A DNA stretch of 55,574 bases. Source: Patescibacteria group bacterium. Lineage in GTDB: Bacteria > Patescibacteriota > Patescibacteriia > Magasanikbacterales > GWA2-37-8. The notes below the pieces were generated by a model. The model saw only the letters and a program-made list of their open reading frames with translations, was not told the DNA's origin and made no database searches. Numbering within the stretch: position 1 is the stretch's first letter; the number at the start of each line of letters is the position of its first letter. The position numbers and the translations under genes were made by a program. Shown in pieces: positions 2,246 to 50,250 of the stretch. The DNA lies in assembly GCA_004321885.1 (NCBI GenBank), contig SCQK01000001.1, forward strand, positions 1 through 55,574, read 5' to 3'.

Positions 2246-4012
2246 ATGCGACAAAACATCCTGATAGCGATAATCGCGGTCGCCGCTTTTGGCGCGGGAT
2301 TGTTTGGTTTCTATTTTGGCAGTTCAAATTTACCCCCCTCTAACTCCCCCCTTATCAAGGGGGGAGAAAACGAAACGACGCGAACACATTCTTCATACAT
2401 CATGGACAAATCAGTCTATGACGGATTTTCCCAAAGCACCAGCGATTTACCCCCCACTAGCTCCCCCCTTAGTAAGGGGGGAGAAACGATTTTTGCCGGG
2501 GTCGTGCCACACCATCTGCTCGTGGGTAAATATATCTCCGGATTTTTCGCCAAACTGCAAAAACAAAAACCCGAGGTCGTCGTGCTCATCGGTCCCAACC
2601 ATCCGCAAGCCGGCAGGAGCGCCGTCGTGAGCGGACTTTACGACTGGAACACGCCCTACGGCGAATTGCCGGCCGCGGAAAAAATAATTTCCGAATTGGC
2701 GCGGCAAAATCTTATCACCATAAATGATGGACTGCTCGGCAAAGAAAACAGCATTGGCGCGCTGGCGCCTTTTATCAAACAAACTTGGGGCAAAACCAAA
2801 TTCGTGCCGCTGATAGTAAAAAACTCCGCCAAACCGGAACAACTGCGAAATCTAACTGACGCGCTCGTAAAACTTTTGCCTAAAAATTCACTGGTTTTGG
2901 CCAGTGTGGATTTTTCCCATTACCTGCCAAAAGAAGTCGCCGACTTCCATGATGAGCTATCCATCAATGTTTTGGAAACCGGCGATGAAGAGCGCGTCGC
3001 GAAAATGGAAATAGACAGCCAGCCGAGCATCCGCTTTTTGCTGGATTACACGCGAGCGATTGGAGCGCGAAAATTCAATTTGCTTTATCACACCAACAGC
3101 GCGGATATAATGCATCAGCCCGAGCTGGCTGAAACCACCAGCCATGTTTTGGGGTATTTCATTGCCGGCGAACTGAGCGCGAGCAAGTCGGTTTCTTTGC
3201 AATTCTTCGGGGATATGATGCTGGAACGCAATGTGGCGCGGGCCATGGGCACGAGCGGTTTGGACTATTTGCTCGGCGACTTGCGCGGAAAAGAAAATAG
3301 ATTTTTTGCAGGCATGGATTTGATTGTGGCCAATCTGGAAGGCCCTTTCGCGCCAGCGCGGATTCAAACAAGTAAATCAATCGCCTTTCGTTTTGACCCG
3401 GCGCTGGCCGGGCAGTTGAAGAAATATAATTTTGGCGCCTTTTCTTTGGCCAACAATCATTTGCTGGACATGGGCTGGAAAAATTTGGACTTTACCAAAA
3501 AAATTCTGGAGCAAAACGACTTGGGTTACTTCGGCGACCAGTGGCGCGAAGGACCGGAGTACACACTGTTGGAGGGGTCGGTTGCTTTCATCGGCATCAA
3601 CAACACCGACCACAACTTGGATATGAAAAAATTGAAAGAGGCCTTGGACGAAGCCCGACATAACGCGGAATATGTTATCGTGATGCCGCACTGGGGAGTG
3701 GAATACCAGCAAACTTCCAACCAAAATCAGCGCGACTTGGCGCATTGGCTGATTGACAACGGCGCCGACGCCGTGGTGGGTAGTCATCCGCACGTGACGC
3801 AAGAAATGAAAATTTACAAAGACGCTCCGATATTTTATTCGCTCGGCAATTTCATTTTTGACCAATATTTTTCCAAAGAAACGCAAGAGGGGCTAAGCGT
3901 GGGGTTGATATTGCAAGATGGGAAAGTGAAAAAAATTTACCAGTTTCCCTTTTACGGTGAAAAATCCAAAGTCCGGCTGAAAGGGTCTGTCGCTGGCGAC
4001 AGACAAAATTAA
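2246..4012 (+). CDS. fusion protein: N-terminal MEMO1/AmmeMemoRadiSam-B-like domain plus C-terminal CapA/PgsA-type (poly-gamma-glutamate synthesis) metallophosphatase domain
   Basis: An N-terminal TM anchor is followed by the MEMO-like motifs VVPHHLLVG...VVVLIGPNHP. The C-terminal half carries CapA-like motifs (ANLEGP, SLANNHLLDMG, VIVMPHWGVEY, VVGSHPHV, GNFIFDQ). Two in-frame palindromic repeat insertions are present. Confidence 0.7.
   Translation: MRQNILIAIIAVAAFGAGLFGFYFGSSNLPPSNSPLIKGGENETTRTHSSYIMDKSVYDGFSQSTSDLPPTSSPLSKGGETIFAGVVPHHLLVGKYISGFFAKLQKQKPEVVVLIGPNHPQAGRSAVVSGLYDWNTPYGELPAAEKIISELARQNLITINDGLLGKENSIGALAPFIKQTWGKTKFVPLIVKNSAKPEQLRNLTDALVKLLPKNSLVLASVDFSHYLPKEVADFHDELSINVLETGDEERVAKMEIDSQPSIRFLLDYTRAIGARKFNLLYHTNSADIMHQPELAETTSHVLGYFIAGELSASKSVSLQFFGDMMLERNVARAMGTSGLDYLLGDLRGKENRFFAGMDLIVANLEGPFAPARIQTSKSIAFRFDPALAGQLKKYNFGAFSLANNHLLDMGWKNLDFTKKILEQNDLGYFGDQWREGPEYTLLEGSVAFIGINNTDHNLDMKKLKEALDEARHNAEYVIVMPHWGVEYQQTSNQNQRDLAHWLIDNGADAVVGSHPHVTQEMKIYKDAPIFYSLGNFIFDQYFSKETQEGLSVGLILQDGKVKKIYQFPFYGEKSKVRLKGSVAGDRQN
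2333..2366. repeat. palindromic repeat family D (CCCCTCC...CCCCTTATNAAGGGG...GGAGGGG), in-frame copy
   Basis: ccccctctaactccccccttatcaaggggggag; translates to LPPSNSPLIKGGE inside the 2246-4012 ORF. Confidence 0.8.
2451..2483. repeat. palindromic repeat family D, in-frame copy
   Basis: cccccactagctccccccttagtaaggggggag; translates to LPPTSSPLSKGGE inside the same ORF. Confidence 0.8.
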
Positions 4013-4116: not shown

Positions 4117-5337
4117 CTACGGCTTCGGCGTGGACTTCTCGGCCTCCACCACCTGGCGCGCCTTCTCCTCCGCCGCTTTGCGCACCTTCTCCGCCTCCGC
4201 TCTGATCTGTTCGGCTTTCTCGTCCGGATCGGACGAGATTTTCACACCCGCCCAGCCGCCCGTCACGTCACGATTCCGCCGCTTGGGCAACGGAGGCGGC
4301 TTGCGCTTGTCCTCGGCCGGTTGTACTGGCCCTGTGGGGTCGTCCTTGGGCGCTACCTTGTCCGCCTCCGCGCAGACATTATTGATGGCCTTGTCCACCG
4401 CTGCCACCTCGTCTGCACTGTCTTTCGGCGGTAGCTCGGCTATCATGCGCAGACCGGTCGGCGTACACGCCTCATCGAACTCGGCCACTGCCTCGGGCAC
4501 TCCCTCACCTGCTTTTTCCTCACCCGCGACCATCTCGTCGGTCACCACTACCTCGCCAGGCGCAGGCTCGTTCTTGACTGACTCTGGCCCTAGCCAGCCA
4601 TATTTCACGACCACTGTGTCCCAGACCTGCATCAGCACCGTCACTTCCAGGTACTCGACAAGAACCTTGGGCTCCAGCAGGGGATGGCTCAACAGAACCT
4701 TATCATCCCAGGTCTGGCCGGCCCTTCCCAAGCGCATGGAGTGCCTCATCACCTCGGCTGTCAGAGCCGGCGGCAACTTGGCGACCTGCTCGGCGTTAAG
4801 CAAGCCGATCGCCTCAACCACCTCGCAGTGAGTATTCTTGCCGGCGCTGACATCTTCCAGCAAGTCCAACTCCAGTATGAGGTCAACCAGCTGGTAGGCG
4901 AGTCGCTTGTGCTCTTTGGTGTCCTTCTCCCGCCAACCGCTCTGGAAGAGCAACTCCTGGATGAGTCGGGCCGGCAGGTAACGAACGGCATCATCGGCCG
5001 GCATAGCCTTGACGATCTGGTCCGGGTTCGTATCCCCCACTTCCAATGCCCCCTCCAGGCCCTCGCCTGCCCACTGCCAAGACTGGCGGCAGACAGTCGC
5101 ACGTGCACCAGATACGGCGCAAGCCTTGAGAATGTCTGCCCGTCTTCCCGGCTGGTCAGCCAACCCCTCCATTATGGCCATGGGCGGAAACTTGGCCACG
5201 ATGTCGCTCGTGGTGAGCACGGTCGCTCCGGTCACGAGCGCTAGGTCCAGCGCGCTGGCCAACAGCTTCTCCGCTGGCCTCAGGTCCCGGGGTTTCTTTG
5301 TCCCAATCGGAACGCTCTCTCCGCTTTCCTTCATCAT
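4117..5337 (-). CDS. hypothetical protein (406 aa) in a GC-rich islet
   Basis: Strong RBS (AAGGAGAAA before ATG). GC content is well above the flanking DNA. The product is acidic with an A/E/K-rich C-terminal low-complexity tail. I recognised no family. Confidence 0.6.
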   Translation of the reverse strand: MMKESGESVPIGTKKPRDLRPAEKLLASALDLALVTGATVLTTSDIVAKFPPMAIMEGLADQPGRRADILKACAVSGARATVCRQSWQWAGEGLEGALEVGDTNPDQIVKAMPADDAVRYLPARLIQELLFQSGWREKDTKEHKRLAYQLVDLILELDLLEDVSAGKNTHCEVVEAIGLLNAEQVAKLPPALTAEVMRHSMRLGRAGQTWDDKVLLSHPLLEPKVLVEYLEVTVLMQVWDTVVVKYGWLGPESVKNEPAPGEVVVTDEMVAGEEKAGEGVPEAVAEFDEACTPTGLRMIAELPPKDSADEVAAVDKAINNVCAEADKVAPKDDPTGPVQPAEDKRKPPPLPKRRNRDVTGGWAGVKISSDPDEKAEQIRAEAEKVRKAAEEKARQVVEAEKSTPKP

Positions 5338-5417
5338 TTTCTCCTTCGTGTTTCTTTCATTTCTCTTGGACCCACCACGGGCCCAATCTGAACTTCATCC
5401 TGAACGCGGCAAAAAAT

Positions 5418-5663
5418 CCCCTACAGGGCCTGTCGCCGAATACGCTTTCGTGACGAAATTACAGAATTCCGAGACAAAATTGTTGAATAATTTTGCGGCT
5501 TACCTGGAAGGTAAGCCAAAAATTTGAAGCGAACTTAAAAATTTCTGCGGGCTTCGCAAGTCAAAATAAATTTTGACTTGTCTCAGCCCTTGAAATTTTG
5601 AGACAATTTTGGCCGGAATTCTGGAATTGCAGTAGAAATGGTATTCGGCGACAGGCCCCTACA
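5418..5663. repeat. hairpin-dense ~246-bp element bounded by an 18-bp perfect inverted repeat (MITE-like or structured RNA)
   Basis: Left end cccctacaGGGCCTGTCGCCGAATAC and right end GTATTCGGCGACAGGCCcctaca. Interior palindromes include caagtcaaaat-a-attttgacttg, gcttacc...ggtaagc, gtctcag...ttgagac and an imperfect cagaattccgagacaaaattg / caattttggccggaattctg pair. Confidence 0.6.
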
Positions 5664-5928
5664 ATAAAAACGAAAGGGATCCTTCCACCGCCCCGAGGCG
5701 GGGCCCCGCTGCGGCGGTGGCGCTTCGCTCAGGATGACAGTAAATAAGTCAAGGCTGCGAAAAAAATTATAAAGAACTATATAACATTACACAGGATGCT
5801 TGATTTGTCAAGCTCCGCCGCTCTATTTTTGGCTTAGGCCAGCCGCAACTCGGCTGTAACCAAATGGGGTTGACTATCCCCCGCCAAACAGGGTATAATA
5901 TATCTGTTTTTACTCTCACTTATTTCGT

Positions 5929-6321
5929 ATGGAAAAGACCAAAGCCGGTTTCGCGCCGGAATTTCTAAAAAAAATAAAACAGATGCTTTCCGATGAAAAA
6001 GCCAAGCTGGAAAGCGAGCTGGCCAAATTTGCCAAAAAAAATCCCGAGGAAGAAGGCGACTATAAAAGCTCGTTTCCGGATTACGGCGACAAAGACGACG
6101 AGAACGCGGCCGAGGTGGCCGAGTACGCCGTGAATTTATCTTTGGAAGACAACCTGGAAAAAACCCTGCGCGACGTGCGCTCGGCCCTGAAGCGCCTGGA
6201 AAAAGGCGACTATGGTTTTTGCAAATACTGCCACAAACCCATAGAAGAAAAGCGCCTGCTGGCCCGCCCCACTTCCAGTTCCTGCATGGAATGCAAAAAA
6301 ATAATCAAGCAGGAAGTTTAG
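5929..6321 (+). CDS. dksA: DksA/TraR family C4-type zinc-finger protein
   Basis: Coiled-coil N-terminal region plus a CxxC-N17-CxxC finger (CKYCHKPIEEKRLLARPTSSSCMECKK). A TATAAT element lies upstream at ~5893. Confidence 0.7.
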   Translation: MEKTKAGFAPEFLKKIKQMLSDEKAKLESELAKFAKKNPEEEGDYKSSFPDYGDKDDENAAEVAEYAVNLSLEDNLEKTLRDVRSALKRLEKGDYGFCKYCHKPIEEKRLLARPTSSSCMECKKIIKQEV

Positions 6322-6322: not shown

Positions 6323-6829
6323 ATGTTACAAAAAATCCGCTGGAGGAGTTTGCTCACTGGCGGATTTTTTTTAATTATTGACCAATTTTTGAAATGGTTT
6401 TCTTTAGACGCGTGGACAGAAAAAAAGATTGGCTGCCTCGGTTTACCCCCACACCAAAATTTTTGGTGTGGGGGCTGGGAACCATTCGCCAATTATGGCG
6501 CGGCTTTTGGCTTGCCCGTGCCCAACCGGGTGATTGTCATTCTGACTATTCCCGCCCTGTTTCTGATTGGGTATCTATTCGCGAAACAAAGACCCCCTCT
6601 TAATCTCCCCCTTAGCAAGGGGGAGGGGATTCGTTTATTTGCGCTCGCAATTTTATTTTTCGGAGCGCTGTCAAACCTGATAGACCGGCTGGCCTATGGA
6701 TACGTGGTGGATTATCTGCGAGCGCTTACGGGAATAATAAATTTGAGCGATATTCTGATTGTATTGGGATTATTATTTTTTTTGTTTGGTAAAGGGATTC
6801 CTCTCCCGACTAAGTCGGGATCGGAATGA
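6323..6829 (+). CDS. lspA: lipoprotein signal peptidase II
   Basis: Four TM segments with the motifs NYGAAFGLP and DRLAYGYVVDYL. Contains an in-frame family-D repeat (RPPLNLPLSKGEG). Confidence 0.75.
   Translation: MLQKIRWRSLLTGGFFLIIDQFLKWFSLDAWTEKKIGCLGLPPHQNFWCGGWEPFANYGAAFGLPVPNRVIVILTIPALFLIGYLFAKQRPPLNLPLSKGEGIRLFALAILFFGALSNLIDRLAYGYVVDYLRALTGIINLSDILIVLGLLFFLFGKGIPLPTKSGSE
6593..6628. repeat. palindromic repeat family D, in-frame in lspA
   Basis: ccccctcttaatctcccccttagcaagggggagggg. Confidence 0.8.
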
Positions 6830-6832
6830 CAG
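6803..6832. repeat. palindromic repeat family B core (CCCGACTAAGTCGGG) plus the ggaatgacag motif shared with family A
   Basis: tcccgactaagtcgggatcggaatgacag at the lspA 3' end / comM start. Confidence 0.7.
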
Positions 6833-8352
6833 TATGTATGTTTTGTAAATTGAACTCGGGCTCGGTGATGGGTTTGGAATGCCAGCCCGTGGAAGTGGAG
6901 GTTGACATCAGCAAAGGTCAGACCGCCTTCGGCATCGTGGGCCTGCCCGACGCTTCCATCAACGAAGCGCGCAGCCGCATCCACTCGGCCATTAAAAATT
7001 CCGGCTATGATTATCCGTTTAATTTTCGCATCCTAATAAATCTGGCGCCGGCCAGCGCGCGCAAAGAAGGCACGTCCTATGACTTGGCCATGGCCGCGGG
7101 CATGATCGTGGCCAGCGGCGAATTGCGCGCCGATCTAAGCGACGCCATCCTGACCGGCGAACTGGCCTTAGACGGCGCCCTGCGGCACGTAAACGGCATC
7201 TTGCCGCTCTCCCTGTTCGCCAAAAACCGCGGACTGAAAAGAATCTTCCTGCCGGAAATGGACGCGCCCGAAGCCGGACTGGTGGACGGACTGGAAATAT
7301 ATCCGGTGAAAAATTTGCGCCAGTTACTGGAACACATTGAGGGCAAAACGTTTATCGCCCCTTACGCGCGTACGGAAAATCCGAACAATTATCGCGCGCC
7401 CGAATACGAACTGGACATGGCGCTCATCAAAGGCCAGGAGTTCGCCAAACGCGCGCTGGAAATCGCGGCCAGCGGGGCGCACAACATACTGATGAGCGGG
7501 CCGCCCGGCTCGGGCAAGACCCTTTTGGCGCGCACCCTGCCTTCCATTTTACCGCGCCTTACTTCCGACGAAGTATTGGAAGTGACAAAAATTTATTCCG
7601 TGGCCGGCCTGCTCCAAAGCAGTTTCATCACCGAACGTCCGTTTCGCTCGCCGCACCACACGGCCTCGGGCGTGGCCTTGGTGGGCGGCGGCCGGTATCC
7701 GCGGCCCGGCGAAATATCCCTCTCGCACCGCGGCGTGCTTTTTTTGGATGAGTTCCCCGAATTCGCTCGCTCGGTTTTGGAAAACCTGCGCCAGCCCCTG
7801 GAAGACGGAACCGTTACCGTTTCCCGCGCCGAGGGTTCGGTCGCTTTTCCGGCCCGCTTTATTCTGGTGGCCAGCCAAAATCCCTGTCCCTGCGGTTTTT
7901 ACACCGACCCGGAACGGCAATGCACCTGTGGCAGCGCGCAAATTTTGCGTTACCGAAAAAAAATCAGCGGCCCCTTGTTGGACCGCATTGATTTGCACAC
8001 CGAGGTGCCGCGAGTGAAGTTTGAAAAACTGGCCTCGGACGAACTGGCCGAGTCATCGGAAAAAATACGCCTGCGCGTGGAAGAAGCGCGCGAACGGCAG
8101 AACAAAAGATTCCGCGGCTTGCCCGTGACCGCCAATAGCGAAATGAGGGGCGGTGAAATCCGCCAGTTCTGCAAACTGGACGACCCGTCAATTGATTTGT
8201 TGCGCGCGGCCATGACCCGCATGCGCCTGTCGGCGCGCGCCTACAATCGCGTTCTCAAACTCGGCCGCACCATCGCCGACCTGGCCAAGAGTGACGACAT
8301 CAAGCTGGAACACGTGGCCGAAGCCCTGCAGTATCGAGCAAAAAGCGAATAA
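6826..8352 (+). CDS. comM: YifB/ComM family Mg-chelatase-like AAA+ ATPase
   Basis: N-terminal Lon-like domain, Walker A GPPGSGKT, sensor motifs, and a C-terminal domain conserved along its full length. Confidence 0.9.
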   Translation: MTVCMFCKLNSGSVMGLECQPVEVEVDISKGQTAFGIVGLPDASINEARSRIHSAIKNSGYDYPFNFRILINLAPASARKEGTSYDLAMAAGMIVASGELRADLSDAILTGELALDGALRHVNGILPLSLFAKNRGLKRIFLPEMDAPEAGLVDGLEIYPVKNLRQLLEHIEGKTFIAPYARTENPNNYRAPEYELDMALIKGQEFAKRALEIAASGAHNILMSGPPGSGKTLLARTLPSILPRLTSDEVLEVTKIYSVAGLLQSSFITERPFRSPHHTASGVALVGGGRYPRPGEISLSHRGVLFLDEFPEFARSVLENLRQPLEDGTVTVSRAEGSVAFPARFILVASQNPCPCGFYTDPERQCTCGSAQILRYRKKISGPLLDRIDLHTEVPRVKFEKLASDELAESSEKIRLRVEEARERQNKRFRGLPVTANSEMRGGEIRQFCKLDDPSIDLLRAAMTRMRLSARAYNRVLKLGRTIADLAKSDDIKLEHVAEALQYRAKSE

Positions 8353-9361: not shown

Positions 9362-12184
9362 ATGCCTCTGCCTTTTCTTAAAAAACGCGAATACGGACGC
9401 GTGGATGAGAAGCCGCGCCGCCGGCTTTTGAATAAAAAAACCCTTAAAATTTTGATTTTGTCTGTTGTTTCGGCCGGACTCTTGGGTTTTGTGGCCCTCA
9501 CTGTCATCGCGGCTGTCATCACGCGCGATTTGCCGGACCCGGGAAAATTAAGCGAGCGTCCGGTGGCCGAAAGCACGAAAATATACGACCGCACCGGCCA
9601 GCATCTGCTCTATGAGATCTACGAGGGCCAGAAGCGCACTATGGTGGAGCTAAACCAAATCGCGGACTTTGCCAAAAAGGCCGTCATCGCCATAGAGGAC
9701 AAGCGCTTTTACGAACACAAGGGCGTACGTTGGATTAGCATTCTGCGCGCGGGCTTTAACAACCTCATCGGCCGGCGCACCGGCGGGGGCGGGGCCTCCA
9801 CCCTGACCCAGCAATTCGTAAAAAAAGTGGTGGTGGGGGACAAACGCACGATTTTTAGAAAAATAAAAGAGGCGGTGATGGCCATCCGCCTGGAAAAAAA
9901 ATACACCAAGGACCAGATTTTGAAATTATACCTGAATGAAATCCCCTACGGCTCCACCAACTATGGTATAGAAGCGGCCAGCCAATCGTATTTTCGCAAA
10001 TCAGCCAAAGACCTGGACCTGGCCGAGTCAGCTGCTCTGGCCGCGATTTTGCCCGCACCCAGCCGGTATCTAAACGACCTCAATGCCCTGCGCAGCCGGC
10101 GCGACATCGTGCTGAAACTAATGCAAGAGCAGGGGTATATAAACGAAGAGCAGATGGAAGAGGCGCAAAACAAAGCCCTGCGCCTGTACCGCAGCGCCGG
10201 CATTTTGAACGCCCCGCATTTTGTGCTGTACGTAAAACAACTTTTAGCCGATCAGTATGGCGAAAAAAAACTTGATACCGGCGGATTTAAGGTTATTACC
10301 TCGCTGGATTTTGCCAAACAAACATTGGCGGAAAAAATCATCAAAGAGCAGGGCGATAAATTCGCTTCCAGCTCCAATGCCAACAACGCGTCCTTGGTGG
10401 CCATAGACCCAAAGACCGGCCAAATCCTCGCCATGGTGGGCTCACGCGACTTCAACAACGAAGCCATAGACGGCCAGTTCAACGTGGCTGTGCTGGGCAA
10501 GCTCCAGCCCGGTTCTTCATTCAAGCCATTTGTGTATACGGCCGCTTTTGAAAAGGGTTACACGTCAGATACCGTGCTCTACGATGTATCCACCAACTTT
10601 GACAGGCGCGTCGGCGGCAAGTACCAGCCGAAAAATTACGACGGCAAAGAACGCGGACTGGTGACCATGCGCAAGGCCCTGCAAGGCTCTTTGAATATCC
10701 CGGCGGTAAAAACCCTGTATTTGGCTGGCATAAACTACACCCTTGATTTTGCCAAGCGCTTTGGCTATACGACTTTGAGCGAGAAAGCCGGATTGTCATT
10801 GGTCTTGGGCGGCTCGGAAGTAAATTTATTGGAGCACGCGAACGCCTACGCGACTTTGGCGAATAGCGGCGTGTACCACAAACCCGTCAGCGTGCTGAAA
10901 ATCACGGACCAGACCGGCGGCGCTGTGTATGAATGGCAGGCGAGCGAGGGCGACGAGGCAATCTCGCCGGAGCTGGCGGCCAAAATTTCCAACGTGCTTT
11001 CGGATAATGTCAGCCGCGCTTACATGTTTGGAACAAAAAACAACCTGGTTTTGCCCGGCCGGCCCGTGGCCGCCAAAACAGGCACCACGCAAAACAGCTG
11101 GGACGCCTGGACAATGGGCTACACGCCATCGCTCGCCGCGGGCGTCTGGGTAGGCAACACGCCCAAGCACTTGCCTATGAAAGCCGGGGGCAATACATTA
11201 GCCGGAAGCATTTGGAATAAATTTATGAGCGAGGCCTTGCAAGGCGCAGCCGTGGAATTTTTTCCATCCCCGCCGGCCAGTACCGCGACCAAACCGATTT
11301 TGCGCGGGGGTGAAAGCGGCATCACGCTCGCGATAAACAGCGCCACGGGCCGCATCGCCATTTCCACCACGCCTCCGGATTTGATTGTGAACCGCACCTA
11401 CCTGCCGCCGCATGATATTTTGCATTATGTGGTCAAAGACGACCCGAACGGCCCGGGTCCCCTAAACCCCTATGACGACCCGCAATATGAAAACTGGGAA
11501 ACGGCGCTCACTGACTGGATAGGCCGCCAGCAAAAAGCCGGACGCGAGCTGACCCTGGCCGAACCGCCCAGTGAGTATGATACTCCGGGCGACCCGGCGC
11601 TCTCGCCTGTCGTGCAAATAATTACTCCGGCCACCAGTTCCACTCTGACCTCGCGGCAAATAGACATACAGGTTAGCGCCTCGGCTCCGCGCGGGGTGAG
11701 TTTGGTGACGTATAAAATAGACGGGATAAAAATCGGCTCGGCCAGCCAACCGCCGTTTAATTATTCCTGGTACGCTAAAAATTTGGCCATGGGGCCGCAC
11801 ACCTTGGAAGTGACGGCCCAGGACGACCAGAACAACTGGACAGTAGCCGCGGCGGATTTTGATTTGCAGGCCGACTTTGATCCGCCAAGCTTTGAGTGGT
11901 TTGATGCTTCGCCTTTGGCGCTGAAAGCCGAGGACTGGCCGCGTGTCATGCTGTTGGACCCGTTCCGCTGGAATGAAACAAAAGAAATAAAAATTTACTT
12001 GGTGCCGGCAAACGGGGTGACCAAGCTGATTTACACTTTCAATCACGATGACACTCTTTTCAATGGAAAACTTTCCCTCACCTGGAAGACCTACCCGGGC
12101 GCCGGGCAGTATGATTTGAAGGGCGTGCTGACAGACAGCGCCGGCCGCGCCGCGGAGCGCGTCTTGCGCGTGGTGACGGAGTAG
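9362..12184 (+). CDS. mrcA: class A penicillin-binding protein (transglycosylase + transpeptidase) with a C-terminal Ig-like extension
   Basis: GT51 motifs (EDKRFYEHKGV, RxGGGASTLTQQ), transpeptidase motifs SSFK, SLN and KTGT, and a TM anchor. A TGnTATAAT extended -10 lies upstream at ~9273. Confidence 0.9.
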   Translation: MPLPFLKKREYGRVDEKPRRRLLNKKTLKILILSVVSAGLLGFVALTVIAAVITRDLPDPGKLSERPVAESTKIYDRTGQHLLYEIYEGQKRTMVELNQIADFAKKAVIAIEDKRFYEHKGVRWISILRAGFNNLIGRRTGGGGASTLTQQFVKKVVVGDKRTIFRKIKEAVMAIRLEKKYTKDQILKLYLNEIPYGSTNYGIEAASQSYFRKSAKDLDLAESAALAAILPAPSRYLNDLNALRSRRDIVLKLMQEQGYINEEQMEEAQNKALRLYRSAGILNAPHFVLYVKQLLADQYGEKKLDTGGFKVITSLDFAKQTLAEKIIKEQGDKFASSSNANNASLVAIDPKTGQILAMVGSRDFNNEAIDGQFNVAVLGKLQPGSSFKPFVYTAAFEKGYTSDTVLYDVSTNFDRRVGGKYQPKNYDGKERGLVTMRKALQGSLNIPAVKTLYLAGINYTLDFAKRFGYTTLSEKAGLSLVLGGSEVNLLEHANAYATLANSGVYHKPVSVLKITDQTGGAVYEWQASEGDEAISPELAAKISNVLSDNVSRAYMFGTKNNLVLPGRPVAAKTGTTQNSWDAWTMGYTPSLAAGVWVGNTPKHLPMKAGGNTLAGSIWNKFMSEALQGAAVEFFPSPPASTATKPILRGGESGITLAINSATGRIAISTTPPDLIVNRTYLPPHDILHYVVKDDPNGPGPLNPYDDPQYENWETALTDWIGRQQKAGRELTLAEPPSEYDTPGDPALSPVVQIITPATSSTLTSRQIDIQVSASAPRGVSLVTYKIDGIKIGSASQPPFNYSWYAKNLAMGPHTLEVTAQDDQNNWTVAAADFDLQADFDPPSFEWFDASPLALKAEDWPRVMLLDPFRWNETKEIKIYLVPANGVTKLIYTFNHDDTLFNGKLSLTWKTYPGAGQYDLKGVLTDSAGRAAERVLRVVTE

Positions 12185-12195
12185 CCACAAAACTA

Positions 12196-12225
12196 AAATC
12201 TCCCCGCGCGGAAAAATTTTTTACT
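12196..12225 (+). terminator. intrinsic terminator-like hairpin (ccgcgcgg) plus T-run after mrcA
   Basis: ctccccgcgcggaaaaatttttt. Confidence 0.4.
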
Positions 12226-13345
12226 GCCGTATCGGCATGACGATGTAGAGATAGCTGTCGTCGCCCTTGGGCGAGAGCACGCACGGGCTGTCGCCGTTTA
12301 TCACTTTCAGCTGGGTGGCGTCGGTTTCCATATTATTGAGCCCATCTAACACATAGCGGTGGTTGAGCAGGATGGAATTTTGCTCGCCTTTAACATCCGC
12401 GCTTAACTCGGATTTATGGTCTCCGGTCTGGGTGGAAGCCGAGGAAATAGCGACCAGCGACTGCTCGGGTTTTAGGTCAAAAGTAATGGCATTTATGCCT
12501 GTGGTGGTGAAAATTCCGGCCGCTTTTATCTCTTTGGCCAACTGGCTGGTGGAAAACTCGGCCGTGGTCTTAAACTCCCTGGGGATAATCTGTGTATAAT
12601 CCGGATATTGCCCTTCAATTAGCCGAGAAATCACCTCCACATCATTGTAGCGCAGAACGATTTGATTCTCATTTATCATCAAACGGGTGCTTTTTTCAGT
12701 CTCAAAACCCCCAATGAGGGCCAAAACCCGCGATAATTCCTGGGTGGTGCGGCCCGGCACGATAATTTTCACTTTTTCCTCGCCCTGGGCCAGCTTGATT
12801 TTTTTTTCAGCCAACCGGTAGCTGTCGGTGGCCGCCAAGGTCAGATACCCGGGCTTATCATTATTAAAATCAAACAAAATTCCGGAAAGCTCTGGCCTGA
12901 TTTCGTTTTTGCTGGCTGACTGGCTTACCTGATCCAGCCCTCTTTTTAAGATTTCCGCGTCCAGGGTAAAACCCTTGCCCTCGGTTACAGCCGGCAGTAG
13001 GGGAAATTCATCGGCCGGCGAGCCCTTGATTTTAGTGGCTGTTTTTCCGCATACCACTTCCAACTCGCTTCCGTTTAGGCTTAACTCCACTTTTTCATCA
13101 GACAATAAATTGACAAAATCATTCAAAGTGCGCGCCGGCACGGTGAAGGCCCCGGGCGCTTCTATTTTGGCCCGCAGTTGCGAAATGACGGCCACCTCTA
13201 AATTGGTGGTGAGCATTTCCACTTTCTGCTCGCTGGCCTTGATAAGCACGTTGCCTAATATGGGCAGACTGATGTTTTTTCCGGCTACGCCGCTGACAGC
13301 GGCCAGTGTGTGCGATAGATTCTCCTTGGTGCAGATAAATTTCAT
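12221..13345 (-). CDS. dnaN: DNA polymerase III beta sliding clamp
   Basis: Three-domain clamp architecture, with N-terminus MKFICTKENLSHTLAAVSGVAGKNISLPILGNVLI. Confidence 0.9.
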   Translation of the reverse strand: MKFICTKENLSHTLAAVSGVAGKNISLPILGNVLIKASEQKVEMLTTNLEVAVISQLRAKIEAPGAFTVPARTLNDFVNLLSDEKVELSLNGSELEVVCGKTATKIKGSPADEFPLLPAVTEGKGFTLDAEILKRGLDQVSQSASKNEIRPELSGILFDFNNDKPGYLTLAATDSYRLAEKKIKLAQGEEKVKIIVPGRTTQELSRVLALIGGFETEKSTRLMINENQIVLRYNDVEVISRLIEGQYPDYTQIIPREFKTTAEFSTSQLAKEIKAAGIFTTTGINAITFDLKPEQSLVAISSASTQTGDHKSELSADVKGEQNSILLNHRYVLDGLNNMETDATQLKVINGDSPCVLSPKGDDSYLYIVMPIRQ

Positions 13346-13564
13346 GACAGTTGGATTAAATATATTTATATAATAGTAATAATAATACTGTGGAAAAAGG
13401 GGATAAATGTCAAGAGTGTTTTATCTTAGCCAATTTTAAGGAATTTGTCTTGTGGATAATTTTTTACAACCTGTGCGAGAAAGTTGATAAGTTTTACCCG
13501 CTGGTTCAGACCCTGTGGACAATTATATTTTTTATCCACAACTTATCGGCCAGCCGTTCACAGG
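13346..13564. other. candidate oriC: DnaA-box cluster plus AT-rich DUE between dnaA and dnaN
   Basis: Perfect boxes TGTGGATAA (13450-13458) and TTATCCACA (13531-13539), near-boxes tgtggaaaa (13388) and tgtggacaa (13514), and the AT-rich run aatatatttatataatagtaataataata at 13353-13387. Confidence 0.6.
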
Positions 13565-14953
13565 TTACGCGCTCACGTAAAATTTCTGTTTGATAAACTC
13601 CATCTCTTGTTTTAAGCGCAAGTCGTTTTCTGTTTTTTTGCCGATTAGTTTGTCGGCGTGCATGGCTGTGGTGTGGTCGCGGCCACCCAACTCGTCGCCA
13701 ATGGCTGGGTAAGACATGTTTAGCTCACTGCGCATCAGGTGCATAATAATCTGGCGCGGCGCGGAGAAGCGCTTTTCGCGGCTCTGGCCCAGAATATCAC
13801 CCGAGGCAATGCCATAATAGGCGCAGACCGCGTCTATGATTTGTTGCGGGGTTACTGACCTCTGCATCAGCCGCGCTTCCATGCTGGCCAGCAAGTTTTT
13901 TACCGAATCCGGCGTGGGCTCGGTGTTTTTCAGTTGGTGGAAAGCCATGATTTTGTTGAGCGCTCCTTCCAGTTCGCGAATGTTTTTTTGGATAATGGTA
14001 GCCACCAGGCGCAAGATGTCTTCGGTGAGGGCGTAATTTTTCTCGGCGCACTTTTTTTGCAAAATGGCGATGCGAGTTTCCAAATCCGGCGGGGCTACAT
14101 CCACAATCATGCCCCACTCAAAGCGCGATTTCAGGCGGTCTTCCAGGGCCGGGATGGCCTTGGGTGGTCGGTCCGAGGTCATCACCACCTGCTTGTTCTG
14201 TTGGTGCAGTTCATTGAAGGTATGAAAAAAAGATTCCTGGGTTTTGTCTTTGCCGGAAATGAATTGAATGTCGTCTATGAGAAGCAGATCAATATTGCGG
14301 TAGCGGTTTTGGAAATTTTTGGCATTGCCTTCGCGCACCGAGGAGATGTAGTCGTTGGAAAATTTCTCGGCGCTGGCGTACATGACATTAAAGTGCGGCG
14401 CGTTTTTCAAAATATGATTGCCAATGGCTTGCAGGAGGTGGGTTTTGCCCAATCCCACCCCACCGTAAATAAAAAGCGGGTTATAGGATTCGCCGGGTTT
14501 GCGCACCACGGCCTGGGCCGCGGCAAAAGCCAGTTCAGTGCCGCTGCCGACCACGAAGTTGTCAAAAATATATTTGGGATTGAGGATGAATTCGCCGCCG
14601 GACTGACCCGTTGGAGGCGCCGGCGTTTCTAACGGGGTTTGGAAAGAATACTCGGCGCGCAGGGCGCCGGCTGCGGCGGCCGGCATGTTTTTGATATTGT
14701 AAATTTTGTATTCCAATTTTTTGATGGGCTTGCCCGTGATACGTTCCATTGATTGCACAATCATGTGGTGATACTTTTTTTCCAGCCAGGCTTTGTTGAA
14801 GGCGCTGGGCACGCAGAGCTCGGCCTGGTTGTCTTGGTAGTTTAGAATTCCGGTATTTTTAAACCAGGTCACGAAGTTTGGTTTAGAAATAGATAACTCT
14901 AATTCTGCCAGGACCGCTTGCCAGATGTCGGTGGTGTTCATACAAACATCCAA
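13565..14953 (-). CDS. dnaA: chromosomal replication initiator DnaA
   Basis: AAA+ Walker A GGVGLGKTHLL and a C-terminal DnaA-box-binding domain. TTG start. Confidence 0.95.
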   Translation of the reverse strand: MDVCMNTTDIWQAVLAELELSISKPNFVTWFKNTGILNYQDNQAELCVPSAFNKAWLEKKYHHMIVQSMERITGKPIKKLEYKIYNIKNMPAAAAGALRAEYSFQTPLETPAPPTGQSGGEFILNPKYIFDNFVVGSGTELAFAAAQAVVRKPGESYNPLFIYGGVGLGKTHLLQAIGNHILKNAPHFNVMYASAEKFSNDYISSVREGNAKNFQNRYRNIDLLLIDDIQFISGKDKTQESFFHTFNELHQQNKQVVMTSDRPPKAIPALEDRLKSRFEWGMIVDVAPPDLETRIAILQKKCAEKNYALTEDILRLVATIIQKNIRELEGALNKIMAFHQLKNTEPTPDSVKNLLASMEARLMQRSVTPQQIIDAVCAYYGIASGDILGQSREKRFSAPRQIIMHLMRSELNMSYPAIGDELGGRDHTTAMHADKLIGKKTENDLRLKQEMEFIKQKFYVSA

Positions 14954-14955
14954 GT

Positions 14956-14979
14956 GTCATTCCCGCGAAAGCGGGAATC
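14956..14979. repeat. palindromic repeat family A (GTCATTCCCGCGAAAGCGGGAATC)
   Basis: gtcattcccgcgaaagcgggaatc immediately upstream of dnaA. Confidence 0.8.
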
Positions 14980-15090
14980 TATTTTTGAAAGTTACCAATA
15001 CATTTTAGCACAGCGCTCCCGGTTGTCCAATACTGTCAAATCCGTTTGGGTGGATGAATTGTGGAAAAACTGTGCACAACTCTCTTCGCA

Positions 15091-17712: not shown

Positions 17713-18996
17713 CTACTGCAGTAGGTCGTCAAGTTCGCATGCAAGCAGGGCTGATTTGTTTAATAATATCTGCTCATTTGGATTTAATTTGTCCGCTGTC
17801 ATTCTTATAACTTTGGTTGCAATTCCATTCCCGAGCATTACGTTGTTTGTTTTTTTTAGGTAATCCTCATTTTTTTTATTAAAAAGCGAGGCATACTTTT
17901 TTAATTTTTTTTGAGTCGCGGAGTTTGAACGGGCGTCATTGCCGGAGAATTCAATTTTTTTATCAATTTTTTTATCTATTTCTATTGGCAGGTCTCCTTC
18001 TCTAAATTCAATCCAGTAGTCGCTGGTGGCATAAATAATTTTAACAGCGCTACCTTCTTCCGTCGCGTATCTAAAAATAAAAGAAAAATTTTCAGTGTGA
18101 AAATCCTGGTGAATGGAAATTTTTTCCAGTTCTTTAACGGTGTGGATTTCATAATCGTCTAAAAGCTGCCGATAACTTTCACGCCAATTTTTTAGCCAGT
18201 TTTTGATATAGGTCTGATTCACGAATAATGGCGAAAGATCGTTATTGAGATTTTCATCACTCACCCTATTCATTTGTATGGTCAGTTTATCAAAAAGAGT
18301 TCGCACACCCTTCACCTCAATATTTTTCGCCGTTAGGTAATCAAAATCCGGCACGATTTTTTTGCTCATGTACCAAAGTAAATCATAAATATCCCGCCCC
18401 TTTTCTTCATAAATAGCGTCTCCTACGCCGCGCGTGCCGCGCAAAAAAATAGCGGCTAATTTGCTGGCCATCAAGGCGGACATGTTGTAAGTTAAGATGA
18501 CAAAAGAAAGCTGGCCATGGTTTATTGGGCGCCGATCAGTGACTGTCTTTGGAGCGCTAAAATGGTTGAGGTCTATTTTTACGTGCACCTGATTGGAGGG
18601 ATGGCCGAGATTGAGTTCGTTGCCGACATGAAATTTCAAAAGCAATCCGCGGCCATTGTTGATCTTAGTGGTCAGAAAATCGGAATTGGCTCCATACGTA
18701 TTTATGAAATATTTTTCAATTTCATTTTTTAATTTTTCCAAGAATTTATCCGTTACTTCGCCAATAACTTCAAAATCCAAATCCTCGGACATGCGGTCAA
18801 GTCCGTGGATTACGCGCAGAGCCGACCCGCCATACATAGTCCATTGGCTGTACTGGGCGTGGTGATAAATAAAATTGAGAACATAATACTGCAGTTCTTC
18901 TTTGAGAGAGACGCGCCGCGTCATGGCGTCTAGGCCGCCATAGGCGGCAAGGTCATCAAGCTTTTTTTTCAGAACCATTGTTATTTGTTCGCTCAT
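17713..18996 (-). CDS. abiEii: AbiEii/AbiGii-family nucleotidyltransferase toxin (type IV TA / abortive infection) with a ~130-aa C-terminal extension
   Basis: MYGGSALRVIHGLDRMSEDLDFEV is the DUF1814 NTase motif. Overlaps abiEi by 4 nt. Confidence 0.8.
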   Translation of the reverse strand: MSEQITMVLKKKLDDLAAYGGLDAMTRRVSLKEELQYYVLNFIYHHAQYSQWTMYGGSALRVIHGLDRMSEDLDFEVIGEVTDKFLEKLKNEIEKYFINTYGANSDFLTTKINNGRGLLLKFHVGNELNLGHPSNQVHVKIDLNHFSAPKTVTDRRPINHGQLSFVILTYNMSALMASKLAAIFLRGTRGVGDAIYEEKGRDIYDLLWYMSKKIVPDFDYLTAKNIEVKGVRTLFDKLTIQMNRVSDENLNNDLSPLFVNQTYIKNWLKNWRESYRQLLDDYEIHTVKELEKISIHQDFHTENFSFIFRYATEEGSAVKIIYATSDYWIEFREGDLPIEIDKKIDKKIEFSGNDARSNSATQKKLKKYASLFNKKNEDYLKKTNNVMLGNGIATKVIRMTADKLNPNEQILLNKSALLACELDDLLQ

Positions 18997-19607
18997 ACGA
19001 ATTTGCTGATTAGTGAATAAAATTTTTTCTGCTCTCCCGCCTCCATTTCATCAATATCAATTCGCAATTCCTTAGTTAACTTTTTAATCCCAGCCAATTT
19101 TTTGATGCCGCGGAACTGGCGAGTTCGGAAATACAATAAATCAAACAAGGCCTTGGCCGGAGAAGCGATAAAAAAATCAAATTTGCCTTTGAATAAAGAA
19201 AAGCCGGAAAATGATTCGTTATTTATGGACTGGTAAGCAAAATTACCGGCTTTTGATTCGTAGTCTCTCGTAACCTTGGGAGTAACCGAAGTAATGGTGT
19301 GTATCGCTTCGGTGGCCAGATTATAATACTGCAAAGCGGCCCAGGAACTTACATATGATGGGCTGCGGATAATATTTGCGAGAAAAAAAGAATACGAGAT
19401 ATCTAACCGGTTTTTTTCAAAATAATCATCCGAAACATATAGGCCCCTTTTGAGCCGCAGAATTTCCTTGTATTTCAAAAATCGGCTGATGTAGGTGTCG
19501 GTCGTGGTTTTGGCGAGCCCCATCTGGCTGGCGAGCTGGTAGATAGTATCTTTGCTGAAGTGGGGCAATGAATTTAGCTGTATTAAGAGGTTTTTCTTGC
19601 TTTTCAT
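18993..19607 (-). CDS. abiEi: AbiEi-family antitoxin / transcriptional regulator (type IV TA)
   Basis: N-terminal wHTH-like region, ~200 aa, directly upstream of and overlapping abiEii. A TTGACA-N17-TACGAT promoter lies upstream on the minus strand. Confidence 0.75.
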   Translation of the reverse strand: MKSKKNLLIQLNSLPHFSKDTIYQLASQMGLAKTTTDTYISRFLKYKEILRLKRGLYVSDDYFEKNRLDISYSFFLANIIRSPSYVSSWAALQYYNLATEAIHTITSVTPKVTRDYESKAGNFAYQSINNESFSGFSLFKGKFDFFIASPAKALFDLLYFRTRQFRGIKKLAGIKKLTKELRIDIDEMEAGEQKKFYSLISKFV

Positions 19608-22692: not shown

Positions 22693-22703
22693 ATAAGCAA
22701 ATT

Positions 22704-22731
22704 GTCATTCCCGCGAAAGCGGGAATCCAGG
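22704..22731. repeat. palindromic repeat family A
   Basis: gtcattcccgcgaaagcgggaatccagg, upstream of tig. Confidence 0.8.
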
Positions 22732-22854
22732 TTTGTCTGTTCAAGTTTAGCGAAACAGCGCGGAAAAGTCAATTATAGCTTGGGGGATTGATATTTACGC
22801 GGTTTTGTGTTATTTAAGTAAAGTTCACCTTGATAACTCAACCAGGAGGGAGAG

Positions 22855-31794: not shown

Positions 31795-32709
31795 ATGGGA
31801 CAACTAATAGACGGAAAATTGATTGCCAAGCATATTGAAGCCGAGACCGCAAGGAGAGTGGCTTTGCTCAAGGAGAAAGGAGCGAAACCAAAGCTTGCGG
31901 TTTTTTTAGTCGGCGAAGACAAGCCGTCGCAAAAGTACGTCAAGAAAAAAGGCGAGGCCGCGCAGCGCGTGGGCCTGGATTTTGTTTTACATGAGTTGGC
32001 GGGCGATATTGGCATGGCCGAGTTGGTGGAAAAAATAGAAGACGCCCAGCATAATGAGGAGCTGTCGGGGATAATTATTCAGCTGCCTTTACCCGAACAT
32101 CTGTACACTTCCGAAGTGTTAAACGCCATTCATCCGGAAATTGACGTGGACTGTTTGACCGACGTGAACTTGGGCAAGTTGGTGATGAAGACCAACCACA
32201 TTGTGCCGCCAACACCGGGCGCGGTCATTACTATAATAAAGGATTTGGGCGTGGATTTGGTGGGGAAAAACGTTGTCATTATCGGCGCCGGCGCCTTGGT
32301 AGGCAAGCCGCTTTCCATAATGATGATGAATGAAAGGGCGAGCGTGACCACTTGCAACAGCGCCACGCGCGACACCAAAGAAAAATGCCTGTCCGCCGAT
32401 ATAATCGTGACCGGCGTGGGTAAAAAAGATTTATTGCGCGGTGGTATGGTGAAAGAAGGCGCCATTGTGATAGACACGGGCGTGGCTTTCGTGGATGGGA
32501 AAATGTATGGTGATGTGAACGTGGACGAGGTGATGGAGCGCGCCGCGCACGTGACGCCTACTCCCGGCGGTGTGGGCCCCTTAACCGTGGTGCGCCTTTT
32601 GTGGAATACGGTGCTGTGCGCGGAAAGAAATTTGGAACTTGGGCTGAAACCGCATTCGCGAGAAAGAATAAAATACGAAGGGCATCGGCCGGCGAAGTAT
32701 AAGCTTTAA
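31795..32709 (+). CDS. folD: bifunctional methylene-THF dehydrogenase / methenyl-THF cyclohydrolase
   Basis: IDGKLIAKHI...VGEDKPSQKYVKKK...GxGxxVGKP Rossmann motif. Confidence 0.9.
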   Translation: MGQLIDGKLIAKHIEAETARRVALLKEKGAKPKLAVFLVGEDKPSQKYVKKKGEAAQRVGLDFVLHELAGDIGMAELVEKIEDAQHNEELSGIIIQLPLPEHLYTSEVLNAIHPEIDVDCLTDVNLGKLVMKTNHIVPPTPGAVITIIKDLGVDLVGKNVVIIGAGALVGKPLSIMMMNERASVTTCNSATRDTKEKCLSADIIVTGVGKKDLLRGGMVKEGAIVIDTGVAFVDGKMYGDVNVDEVMERAAHVTPTPGGVGPLTVVRLLWNTVLCAERNLELGLKPHSRERIKYEGHRPAKYKL

Positions 32710-32712
32710 TTA

Positions 32713-32792
32713 CCCCTCCCTAACCCTCCCCTTATAAAGGGGAGGGAAACGTATTGTTCCTCCCCCTTTATAAGGGGGAGGCGAGGAGGGGG
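32713..32792. repeat. tandem pair of family D repeats in the folD-purA intergenic region
   Basis: cccctccctaaccctccccttataaaggggaggg ... cctccccctttataagggggaggcgaggagggggt. Confidence 0.8.
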
Positions 32793-32799
32793 TAAACAT

Positions 32800-34163: not shown

Positions 34164-36540
34164 AACATCAAATATGATAACGACTGATTTCACGAAAATG
34201 GATGAAGCGCAAATAAAGGAATTTTTGGTTGCCAACAGAATCGCGCTGACGGTGGAAGAAATTTTGAAGATCCAAAACGAAATCTTGAAACGGCCACCCA
34301 CGCTGGCCGAGTGTATTTTGTGGTCCATTCAGGGATCAGAGCACAGCTCGTACAAATCCAGTCGTCCGCACTTGAAACAATTTCACACCAGCGGTCCCAA
34401 CGTAATACTCGGCCCCAGTGAAGACGCCGGCATTGTGGAAATTTGCTGCGACAACGAGGGCCGAAAATACGGCGTAGTGATAAGCCACGAATCGCACAAT
34501 CATCCGTCGCAAGTGGTGCCCTACGAGGGCGCGGCCACGGGCGTAGGCGGCAATGTGCGCGATGTCTGCTGCATGGGCGCGAAAGTAATCGCCTGCGCCG
34601 ACCCTCTGCGCTTCGGACAAATTGACAGTAATAAATCCAAATGGGTGCACGAGGGCGTGGTCTCGGGCATTGCCGGCTATGGCAATCCAATCGGCGTGCC
34701 AAACATCGGCGGCGACTTGTATTACGACGAATCCTACAATGAAAATTGTCTGGTCAACATTGTTACTTTGGGTGTCTTGCGCGAAGACGACATCATACAC
34801 TCGCGCGCGCCGCAAAACGCCGATGGTTATGATTTGGTTTTGGTCGGCAAGCCAACTGACAACAGCGGCTTTGGTGGCGCCAGTTTTGCTTCGTTGGAAT
34901 TAAAAGAAGAAGAAAAAGAACTCAACAAGGGCGCGGTGCAGGAGCCGAACGCTTTTTTGAAGCGCCATTTGCTCAAATCCACCTACGCGCTTTTCAAAAA
35001 AATAAAAGAGGGCGGTTTGATGGATAAAGTGGGTTTCAAAGATTTGGGCGCCGGAGGAATTGCCTGCGCTTCAGTGGAATTGGCCGACGCGGCCGGCTAT
35101 GGCGCCGAAGTGGATATTGATAAAATCCCCAAGGGCATGAACGGACTTAATCCGGCCGTGATTTTGTGCTCCGAGACGCAGGAAAGATTTATGTGGGTGA
35201 GTCATCCGGACGTGACACCGGTTATTTTGGAGCATTATAATGAAATCTTTGATTTGCCCGGCATTGCCGAAGGCGCGCGAGCGGCGGTGGTGGGGAAAAT
35301 TCGCGCTGACGGGCGCTATGTGGTGACAGCCGGCGGAGAAGAAATCGTGAGCGCGCGAGCGCAAGACGTGACACGGGGATTATTGTACAATCGGCCATGG
35401 GAAAAACCCGAGAAAAAATTGAGTGAACCAAACTTGCCCGAGCCAACCGATTACAGTGAAATACTTTTAAAAATTTTGGCCCACGAAAATGTGGCCTCGC
35501 GTTTGCCGGTTTATGAACAGTACGACAAGCAAGTGCAGGGCATCACAATGATTGAATCGGGCCGGGCTGACGCGGGCGTTTTGCAGCCATTTAAGGATGA
35601 CAGTTACCCGGAGGAAATTCGGCAAACCGGCGTCGCTTTGTCAGTGGACCAAAATCCGCGCTACTCCAAGATTGATTCTTATTGGGGGGCGGTAAACGCG
35701 GTAGTGGAAAGCTGCCGCAATGTGGCGGCTGTCGGCGCTGTGCCGTGGGCGTTGACCGATTGTTTGTGCTATGGCAATCCGGAAAAGCCAACCCAGATGT
35801 ATGAATTCGTGGAAGGGGCGCGCGGGGTGGCCGAGGCGGCCAAGGGTTTGCATTTGAAGGACTTCCCGGAAAATCCGGTGCCGATTGTTTCGGGCAATGT
35901 GTCGCTTTACAACGAAAGCAAAGGCAAACCCATCGCTCCCAGCGCCATAATTTCATGCACCGGAAAATTGAGCGACGTGAAGTGCGCGATTGACATGTCG
36001 TTTAAAAAAGCCGACTCAATTATTTTTATGGTCGGCGAGCGCAAAGACGAATGCGGGGGCAGTGTTTATTATAATTTGTTTAAAGAATTGGGAGCCAATG
36101 TACCCAAGCCGGATTTGGCGGAAGCGGAAAAACAAATTTTTGCCGTGACTGACGCGATAGAGGCTGGTCTGGTTTTGGCGGCTCACGATATTTCCGACGG
36201 CGGCTTGGCCGTCTGCTTGGCCGAGATGAGTTTTGGAAATGAGATTGGTTTCGTCTGTCATTCCCGCGAAAGCGGGAATCCAGGGTCGCAACTTCGCCCC
36301 GACAAAGTTCTTTTTTCCGAAACCGGCGGTTTTGTTTTGGAAGTGTCGCCGGAAAACCGCGGCGCAGTGGAAGAAATTTTCGCCAAACGCGGAGTAAAAA
36401 TCTTTGCCATCGGAAAAACCGCCTGTCATTCCGGGCTTGACCCGGGATCCATAACAACGTTAAAGTTTGGAGATGTAATCAACGTACCTTTAAAAGAAGC
36501 AAAAAAAGCGTGGACAGAGGGTTTGTGGGGCAAGCTGTAA
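34126..36540 (+). CDS. purL: phosphoribosylformylglycinamidine synthase subunit PurL
   Basis: PurM-like duplicated domains of FGAM synthase II. The true start is probably MTTSNM at ~34159. Contains an in-frame family A repeat (VCHSRESGNPGSQ). Confidence 0.9.
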   Translation: MLRSRLSRGLAMTTSNMITTDFTKMDEAQIKEFLVANRIALTVEEILKIQNEILKRPPTLAECILWSIQGSEHSSYKSSRPHLKQFHTSGPNVILGPSEDAGIVEICCDNEGRKYGVVISHESHNHPSQVVPYEGAATGVGGNVRDVCCMGAKVIACADPLRFGQIDSNKSKWVHEGVVSGIAGYGNPIGVPNIGGDLYYDESYNENCLVNIVTLGVLREDDIIHSRAPQNADGYDLVLVGKPTDNSGFGGASFASLELKEEEKELNKGAVQEPNAFLKRHLLKSTYALFKKIKEGGLMDKVGFKDLGAGGIACASVELADAAGYGAEVDIDKIPKGMNGLNPAVILCSETQERFMWVSHPDVTPVILEHYNEIFDLPGIAEGARAAVVGKIRADGRYVVTAGGEEIVSARAQDVTRGLLYNRPWEKPEKKLSEPNLPEPTDYSEILLKILAHENVASRLPVYEQYDKQVQGITMIESGRADAGVLQPFKDDSYPEEIRQTGVALSVDQNPRYSKIDSYWGAVNAVVESCRNVAAVGAVPWALTDCLCYGNPEKPTQMYEFVEGARGVAEAAKGLHLKDFPENPVPIVSGNVSLYNESKGKPIAPSAIISCTGKLSDVKCAIDMSFKKADSIIFMVGERKDECGGSVYYNLFKELGANVPKPDLAEAEKQIFAVTDAIEAGLVLAAHDISDGGLAVCLAEMSFGNEIGFVCHSRESGNPGSQLRPDKVLFSETGGFVLEVSPENRGAVEEIFAKRGVKIFAIGKTACHSGLDPGSITTLKFGDVINVPLKEAKKAWTEGLWGKL
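36257..36284. repeat. family A repeat, in-frame in purL
   Basis: gtcattcccgcgaaagcgggaatccagg. Confidence 0.8.
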
Positions 36541-50038: not shown

Positions 50039-50096
50039 TTTTCCATTTTTTAGCTGGTTTTGGGGTATGTGGCGACACAATGGTATCTGACATTCA

Positions 50097-50134: not shown

Positions 50135-50168
50135 GGCGATGACAGCGATGGTCAGAAAGATAGTAGCC

Positions 50169-50230: not shown

Positions 50231-50250
50231 GGTTACATTATAGGCATTTA

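Follow-up and report, generated by a model that had tools for sequence, protein, structure and literature searches.

Bacterial MITEs are described as elements of 50–800 bp that carry no transposase, with termini of at least 10–15 bp and target duplications of 2–10 bp (PMC11602168). A survey of 183,000 genomes devoted to these elements makes no mention of Patescibacteria (PMC11602168), and in the searchable literature neither MITEs of CPR/Patescibacteria nor the terminal-repeat sequence reported here were found to be described, the only results being unrelated primers and reviews. TIMEs are small non-coding elements derived from Tn3, which show 5-bp (sometimes 6-bp) duplications in AT-rich targets and whose 38-bp repeats are homologous to the ends of Tn3-family transposons (PMC4133298). 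The subject of the present work is a 233-bp hairpin-rich segment of a patescibacterial contig (positions 5426–5658), which is very probably a non-autonomous DNA transposon (MITE) representing a new family of this known kind. The segment has no transposase gene, its termini are perfect over 18 bp, its flanking duplication is a 5-mer that varies among copies and it has multiple relatives. The likeness to bacterial MITEs thus extends to size, termini, duplication, lack of coding capacity, intergenic position, multicopy character and mosaic interiors; unlike bacterial MITEs in general, the family yielded no parent insertion sequence in the loci and collections searched.

The window, that is, the whole stretch of 55,574 bp that was analysed, corresponds to an entire NCBI contig of a Patescibacteria group bacterium (locus tags EPN28_). 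The element occupies the 591-bp spacer between ORF 4117–5337 (− strand, 406 aa), which gave no match in Pfam or NCBIfam and no informative match in PHROGs, and a gene for a DksA/TraR-type zinc-finger protein (5929–6321; hereafter dksA), with lspA and then a ComM/YifB-type Mg-chelatase-like gene lying downstream of the latter. Look-ups of three window proteins by exact sequence returned no record with these gene boundaries. By synteny with two of the fetched loci (L106 and L108), the ORFs in 9362–14953 correspond to a class A penicillin-binding protein, dnaN and dnaA, meaning that the contig spans the replication-origin region and that the element is located about 8 kb from dnaA. Further along (17713–19607, − strand), an AbiEii-type nucleotidyltransferase toxin gene with a weak AbiEi-like antitoxin match upstream makes up a predicted type IV toxin–antitoxin pair.

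An earlier note on this DNA had described a hairpin-rich element bracketed by a perfect 18-bp inverted repeat, and both copies of this repeat (GGGCCTGTCGCCGAATAC) were located exactly, at 5426–5443 (+) and 5641–5658 (−). Beyond these two, the 55,574-bp window holds no other match to the 18-mer with up to three mismatches (0.03 expected). With 92% complementarity the repeat stretches to 24 nt, which defines the left (5426–5449, + strand) and right (5635–5658, − strand) terminal inverted repeats. Directly outside both of them lies the same 5-mer, CTACA (5421–5425 and 5659–5663), which constitutes the two copies of the target-site duplication. The earlier note had seen at both ends a longer direct repeat, CCCCTACA, and this 8-mer does occur twice (5418–5425, preceding the left terminal repeat, and 5656–5663), but it is not an 8-bp flanking duplication. 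Its right copy shares three bases, CCC, with the end of the right terminal repeat, and what truly flanks the element on the two sides is the 5-mer, in agreement with the 5-bp duplications of the other family members.

Inside the termini, the fold defines a left sub-terminal arm (5450–5493, +) that pairs with a right sub-terminal arm (5593–5634, +), the latter being also indicated by inverted repeats and by the alignment of family members. The arms enclose a central hairpin (5489–5525, +; inner stem 5497–5505/5509–5517; DNA fold z = −5.5) and an internal module of about 70 bp (5526–5598, +; DNA fold z = −5.1). The module contains nested stems (5539–5545/5592–5598 and 5549–5553/5585–5589) plus the perfect 11-bp stem CAAGTCAAAAT/ATTTTGACTTG (5557–5567/5570–5580) that had already been pointed out from the letters alone. 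It is flanked by a direct repeat (AAAATTTGA at 5519–5527 and AAATTTTGA at 5593–5601), and neither the window nor the fetched loci hold another copy of it; it may have originated by nested insertion or by local duplication. Altogether, 19 inverted-repeat pairs were found in 5200–5900. The 233-bp element carries no transposase gene, its only overlap with an ORF being a spurious read-through frame (5009–5527). The predicted shape of the segment is a single long branched hairpin with z about −11 to −14: as RNA, the 246-nt region has a folding energy of −110.6 kcal/mol (z = −11.1) when the + strand is taken and of −110.1 kcal/mol (z = −14.1) for the − strand, and as DNA the 233-nt element has one of −72.9 kcal/mol (z = −13.0).

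Relatives of the element were looked for in public genomes and metagenomes. An 18-mer scan restricted to exact matches returned 44 loci from a collection with one genome per prokaryotic species and 60 loci from JGI/ENA metagenomes. Most of these matches are chance occurrences of a single 18-mer within coding regions of GC-rich bacteria. In every match from low-GC Patescibacteria, the 18-mer ends a short non-coding segment that presents the inverted partner at its other end, with 0–4 mismatches. The copies of the resulting family, whose terminus consensus is GGGYCTGTCGCCGAATRC, are non-coding and 37–259 bp long. At least eight assemblies of Patescibacteria carry them, frequently with several in the same genome. 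Among the hosts are Kerfeldbacteria, organisms related to that of the window, and unclassified Patescibacteria MAGs recovered from marine and groundwater samples. All complete copies sit in intergenic DNA. The earlier note had named the absence of other copies as a refutation of its reading, and such copies do exist in other assemblies, with the 55-kb window itself holding only one: a nhmmer profile of the family recovered the window copy with E = 5e-40 and found no second one.

Several members of the family measure 162 bp and were found in Candidatus Kerfeldbacteria (L009/L062), in L007 and twice in the same metagenome (L072 and L085), with two further copies of 161 bp sharing one contig (L025a and L025b). 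Other forms depart from this size: one of 259 bp (L036), one of 108 bp accompanied by another of 37 bp (L030), one of 50 bp plus a half copy (L044), and a 37-bp form in L019/L076/L097 that is made of two termini back to back and nothing else. Contig ends interrupt the copies of L038/L083 and L049, and L059 shows four partial copies within 4.6 kb. The 162-bp core form is 69–92% identical among four other assemblies, copies from the same contig or sample (L025a/b, L072/L085) reach 92–94%, and the window copy is 77–83% identical to the 162-bp copies across both arms. The internal module of the window copy is missing from its 162-bp relatives, where the alignment shows a gap, and the window copy is the 162-bp core form with a unique hairpin module of about 70 bp added. 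The copy of L036 also carries nested extra modules, which together with the window copy indicates that mosaic interiors are typical of the family.

Some additional observations were made on these loci. Family members at L036 3425–3683, L044 173–240 and L059 360–400 have other small repeats (ATCCCGCTTTTCTT... modules) nested within them, and they also bear a CCCCGCAAATGCGGGG hairpin, which these genomes contain in addition as a separate, terminator-like structure. The 37-bp copies of L019 and L030, which come from different MAGs, have a common flank, ATTAGAATAA, beyond the 5-bp duplication (L019 1069–1078 and L030 5762–5771); the two sites may be orthologous, or the repeat unit may be longer than the copy itself. 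A solo repeat in L066 was rejected as a family copy, being a chance match within a membrane-protein ORF. The exact 18-mer found no match in viral contigs, and the 14 matches to a degenerate 16-mer in these contigs, all in coding DNA, were dismissed as chance; likewise, blastn found no match in plasmid and phage collections.

Insertion of the family members by transposition is supported by their flanks. Perfect 5/5 duplications border 5 of 12 copies, with a different sequence in each (CTACA in the window, TTTAA in L009, TAAAT in L025a, TAGAT in L036 and ATTAG in L019), three more copies showing a 4/5 match and the remaining 4 of the 12 no recognisable duplication. The null for this comparison was obtained from shifted positions in the same flanks, where P(5/5) = 0.0018, and at this rate five or more perfect duplications among 12 copies have a probability of about 1.6e-11. 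The duplications are AT-rich and vary from copy to copy, as produced by staggered transposase cleavage of varied targets. The suggestion of a MITE with a short target duplication thus gained support from termini that recur in many Patescibacteria assemblies together with copy-specific 5-bp duplications. An empty site was sought among the fetched loci, which only re-sampled the same loci, with none at high identity. In a distant relative of the window organism (L106) the gene arrangement is the same and the spacer, of 248 bp, is without the element, its intergenic DNA not aligning with that of the window. The predicted empty site, formed by joining the window flanks with a single CTACA, is AAAAAATCCCCTACAATAAAAACGAAAGG.

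The family shares with TIMEs its small non-coding character, the AT-rich targets and the 5-bp duplications, and differs from them in that conservation across subfamilies is limited to 18 bp, the inner motif of the Tn3 type is missing and no Tn3-family transposase was seen. By analogy, the element would behave like a TIME, without presenting a 38-bp repeat homologous to Tn3. When compared with the Tn3 repeat, GGGGTCTGACGCTCAGTGG..., the T-variant of the MITE terminus agrees with it at 12 of 18 positions if shifted by 1 nt, a partial resemblance to be read as a lead only. Among insertion-sequence families as classified in ISfinder-type tables, 5-bp AT-rich duplications and G-run ends presumably fit the Tn3 family best. 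The mobilising enzyme is most likely of the DDE type; given ends of GGG and AT-rich duplications of 5 bp, our best guess is a Tn3-like transposase.

The search for such an enzyme covered the window, the fetched loci and several sequence collections. No pair of terminal repeats encloses a transposase in any fetched locus, Pfam scans of the 42 window ORFs of at least 120 aa gave no transposase domain, and nothing related to an autonomous parent was found in viral, plasmid and phage collections. A 3.2-kb interval between two termini in L044 was considered as an autonomous element and rejected, its content being the housekeeping genes for HU, a YmdB-like protein and RNase Y. In L105, which is the closest available relative (DksA 88% identical), the gene of an IS30-family transposase ends about 125 bp upstream of dksA, that is, in the same neighbourhood as the element, which indicates that this spacer tolerates insertions. 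The ends of this IS30 were compared across the fetched full-length homologues. Its right end, AAAACTTGAYTATTY, is common to L105, L125 and L126 and unrelated to the MITE termini, and IS30 was rejected as the parent. Elements of the IS30 family duplicate 2–3 bp. The transposase of L105 (1–900) has more than 4,000 close homologues, many of them on contigs of about 1.05 kb, suggesting a very abundant insertion sequence of about 1 kb in these communities.

The distribution of sequence changes along the element was studied in a seven-sequence family alignment comprising 48 pairs. Columns 1–18, corresponding to the termini, are nearly invariant in sequence across the family and are read as putative protein-recognition sites. 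The sub-terminal arms, in turn, differ between copies while retaining complementarity, with 94.6% of the cells paired. Double-sided changes affect 20 of the 48 pairs, against 9.3 ± 2.2 in column shuffles (0/500 reached 20) and 2–4 in slid controls in which partners were moved by 1–3 columns; in helices 2 and 3 of the alignment, 17 of 26 pairs show compensatory changes on both sides. The equivalent of the central hairpin in L009, L007, L072 and L085 offers an example of the same behaviour, with changed bases and a stem that is still complementary. Template-switch correction inside quasi-palindromes is a known mutational process that needs no selection. The covariation of the arms would be due either to a requirement for a hairpin or cruciform, in mobility or maintenance, or to template-switch repair that corrects one arm against the other. 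It could also point to an RNA or single-strand function beyond the plain MITE label. In a stronger version of this possibility, which we consider unlikely, selection would act on the folded single-stranded form, and the mobilising enzyme would be a transposase of a type uncatalogued in Patescibacteria; the form under selection could then be a DNA hairpin that serves transposition or replication, or else double-stranded RNA resulting from read-through transcription.

The element could be viewed differently, and the same data on folding and pairing have a bearing on the proposal, also put forward in the earlier note, of a highly structured small RNA. According to this explanation, the segment would be a small RNA gene, or a cis-acting 5′ leader regulating ORF 4117–5337 or dksA, with the inverted repeats forming the closing helix. 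The great stability of the predicted folds and the compensatory changes that maintain arm pairing speak for such an RNA, and among the 162-bp copies the fold of one strand is favoured by 4–23 kcal/mol, owing to G-U pairs. The favoured strand is nevertheless reversed in the L025 subfamily (alignment orientation confirmed by nhmmer) and in the window copy neither strand has an advantage; being inconsistent between subfamilies and nil in the window copy, the strand preference is not taken as evidence of RNA function. Moreover, orientation relative to the flanking genes is mixed, some copies, including that of the window, lying between divergent genes, and no promoter-like site was found inside the element, nor was a terminator signature. 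Rfam 15 searched with the whole window at gathering thresholds reported only tRNAs, and a search of 5300–5950 with E up to 10 gave as best match MIR7533, with 38.6 and 36.6 bits on the two strands against a gathering score of 230 bits, sub-threshold matches of a plant miRNA precursor model that reflect a generic long hairpin. Copy-specific 5-bp duplications and 37-bp forms reduced to the termini are likewise unexpected for an RNA gene, and overall this explanation is highly improbable.

Equally relevant is the comparison with palindromes dispersed by, or serving, the host. ERIC/IRU and Correia elements, of about 100–170 bp, are near-full-length imperfect palindromes located in intergenic DNA and with arm complementarity preserved; Correia elements duplicate TA and ERIC elements are without a defined duplication. 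The present family resembles them in its foldback palindrome, its intergenic location and its complementary arms, and differs in having unrelated sequences and hosts from a different phylum. A REP/BIME- or ERIC-like palindrome, either bound by a factor of the host or dispersed as a hairpin by RAYT, would agree with the several other short palindromic repeat families in the window genome, with the minimal family forms of 37–50 bp, which are simple hairpins, and with a search that returned no parent transposase. Elements of the REP type, however, make no target duplications, which are present here, and the combination of invariant inverted 18-bp termini with variable mosaic interiors is the architecture of a transposase substrate; in addition, no tyrosine-transposase domain (RAYT, IS200-like) was seen in the window. 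We therefore regard a host palindrome of this sort as very unlikely. A last explanation takes the element as one end of a composite unit that imported the GC-rich ORF 4117–5337 as an "islet", the other end being a mini-palindrome, GGGTCTGTCGC-TG-GCGACAGAC, situated at 3983–4004 in the last codons of ORF 2246–4012. This palindrome came out of an approximate terminal-repeat search, in which 12-mers with up to one mismatch gave 5 matches where 0.44 were expected. Each of its arms is identical to the outermost 11 nt of the MITE terminus, and its DNA hairpin has z = −4.3. In favour of a composite unit, the GC-rich segment is bordered on its far side by this palindrome, which resembles the terminal repeat, and its ORF has a GC content of 62% against 50% for the window. 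But neither the terminal CCC nor most of the repeat is present in the mini-palindrome, it shows no flanking duplication, and no common duplication exists outside 3983 and 5658; it is possibly, with much uncertainty, a relic or minimal relative of the MITE family. Furthermore, L106 (963-kb contig, DksA 72% identical) encodes a 384-aa homologue of ORF 4117–5337 (6598–7752, − strand; 29% identity, E = 4e-11) in the same divergent position beside dksA-lspA-comM, which is GC-rich too (69% against 46% for its locus). Given this syntenic homologue, ORF 4117–5337 is not foreign, the islet gene idea of the earlier note does not hold, and a composite unit is extremely unlikely.

Apart from the element, the window contains other repeats. 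A second palindromic family (ACCCC...CCCCCTTATMAAGGGGGAG) is found at 2328–2369, 2445–2486, 6588–6629, 32708–32795, 37532–37616 and 47795–47836, with three in-frame coding copies, two in ORF 2246–4012 (LPPSNSPLIKGGE and LPPTSSPLSKGGE) and one in lspA (PPLNLPLSKGEG), which recall the palindromic elements that Rickettsia carries in frame. Five copies were seen of a hairpin repeat of 36 nt, TGTCATTCCCGCGAAAGCGGGAATCCAGG (14952–14987, 22700–22735, 36253–36288, 44257–44292 and 45035–45070). Finally, a palindromic repeat of about 42 nt, GGCTCYAYAGYCCCCGACTAAGTCGGGGMCYRTGGAGCC, occurs in both orientations at 47002–47042, 50091–50137, 50245–50291 and 54568–54608, with weaker copies at 34129 and 6798; two of its copies, 154 bp apart, lie just downstream of tRNA-Arg and tRNA-Ala genes.

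In the proposed model for the MITE, a transposase acting in trans would recognise the invariant 18-bp termini, cut AT-rich targets with a 5-bp stagger and integrate the element, the repair of the gaps giving rise to the duplication. In the window, the element very probably inserted between the divergent ORF 4117–5337 (−) and the dksA/traR-like gene 5929–6321 (+), duplicating CTACA. At this locus it is probably a passenger. The conserved dksA promoter falls outside it: a strong promoter-like site, TTGACT-18-TATAAT, lies at 5870–5899, and a similar TTGACT...TATAAT pair is found upstream of dksA in L105. The element may influence the promoter region of ORF 4117–5337, which is 88 bp away.

In summary, the MITE reading accounts for the hairpin-rich segment without a new RNA gene and corrects the idea of a foreign islet for its GC-rich neighbour. 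Patescibacteria (CPR) have very small, streamlined genomes whose mobile elements are poorly catalogued. A MITE family common to distant lineages of this group points to active DNA transposition, with the transposase probably spreading horizontally. In this scenario, the family can be viewed as a marker for strain-level variation and assembly breaks in Patescibacteria MAGs, and its 18-bp terminus as a bait for finding the transposase responsible for its mobility.
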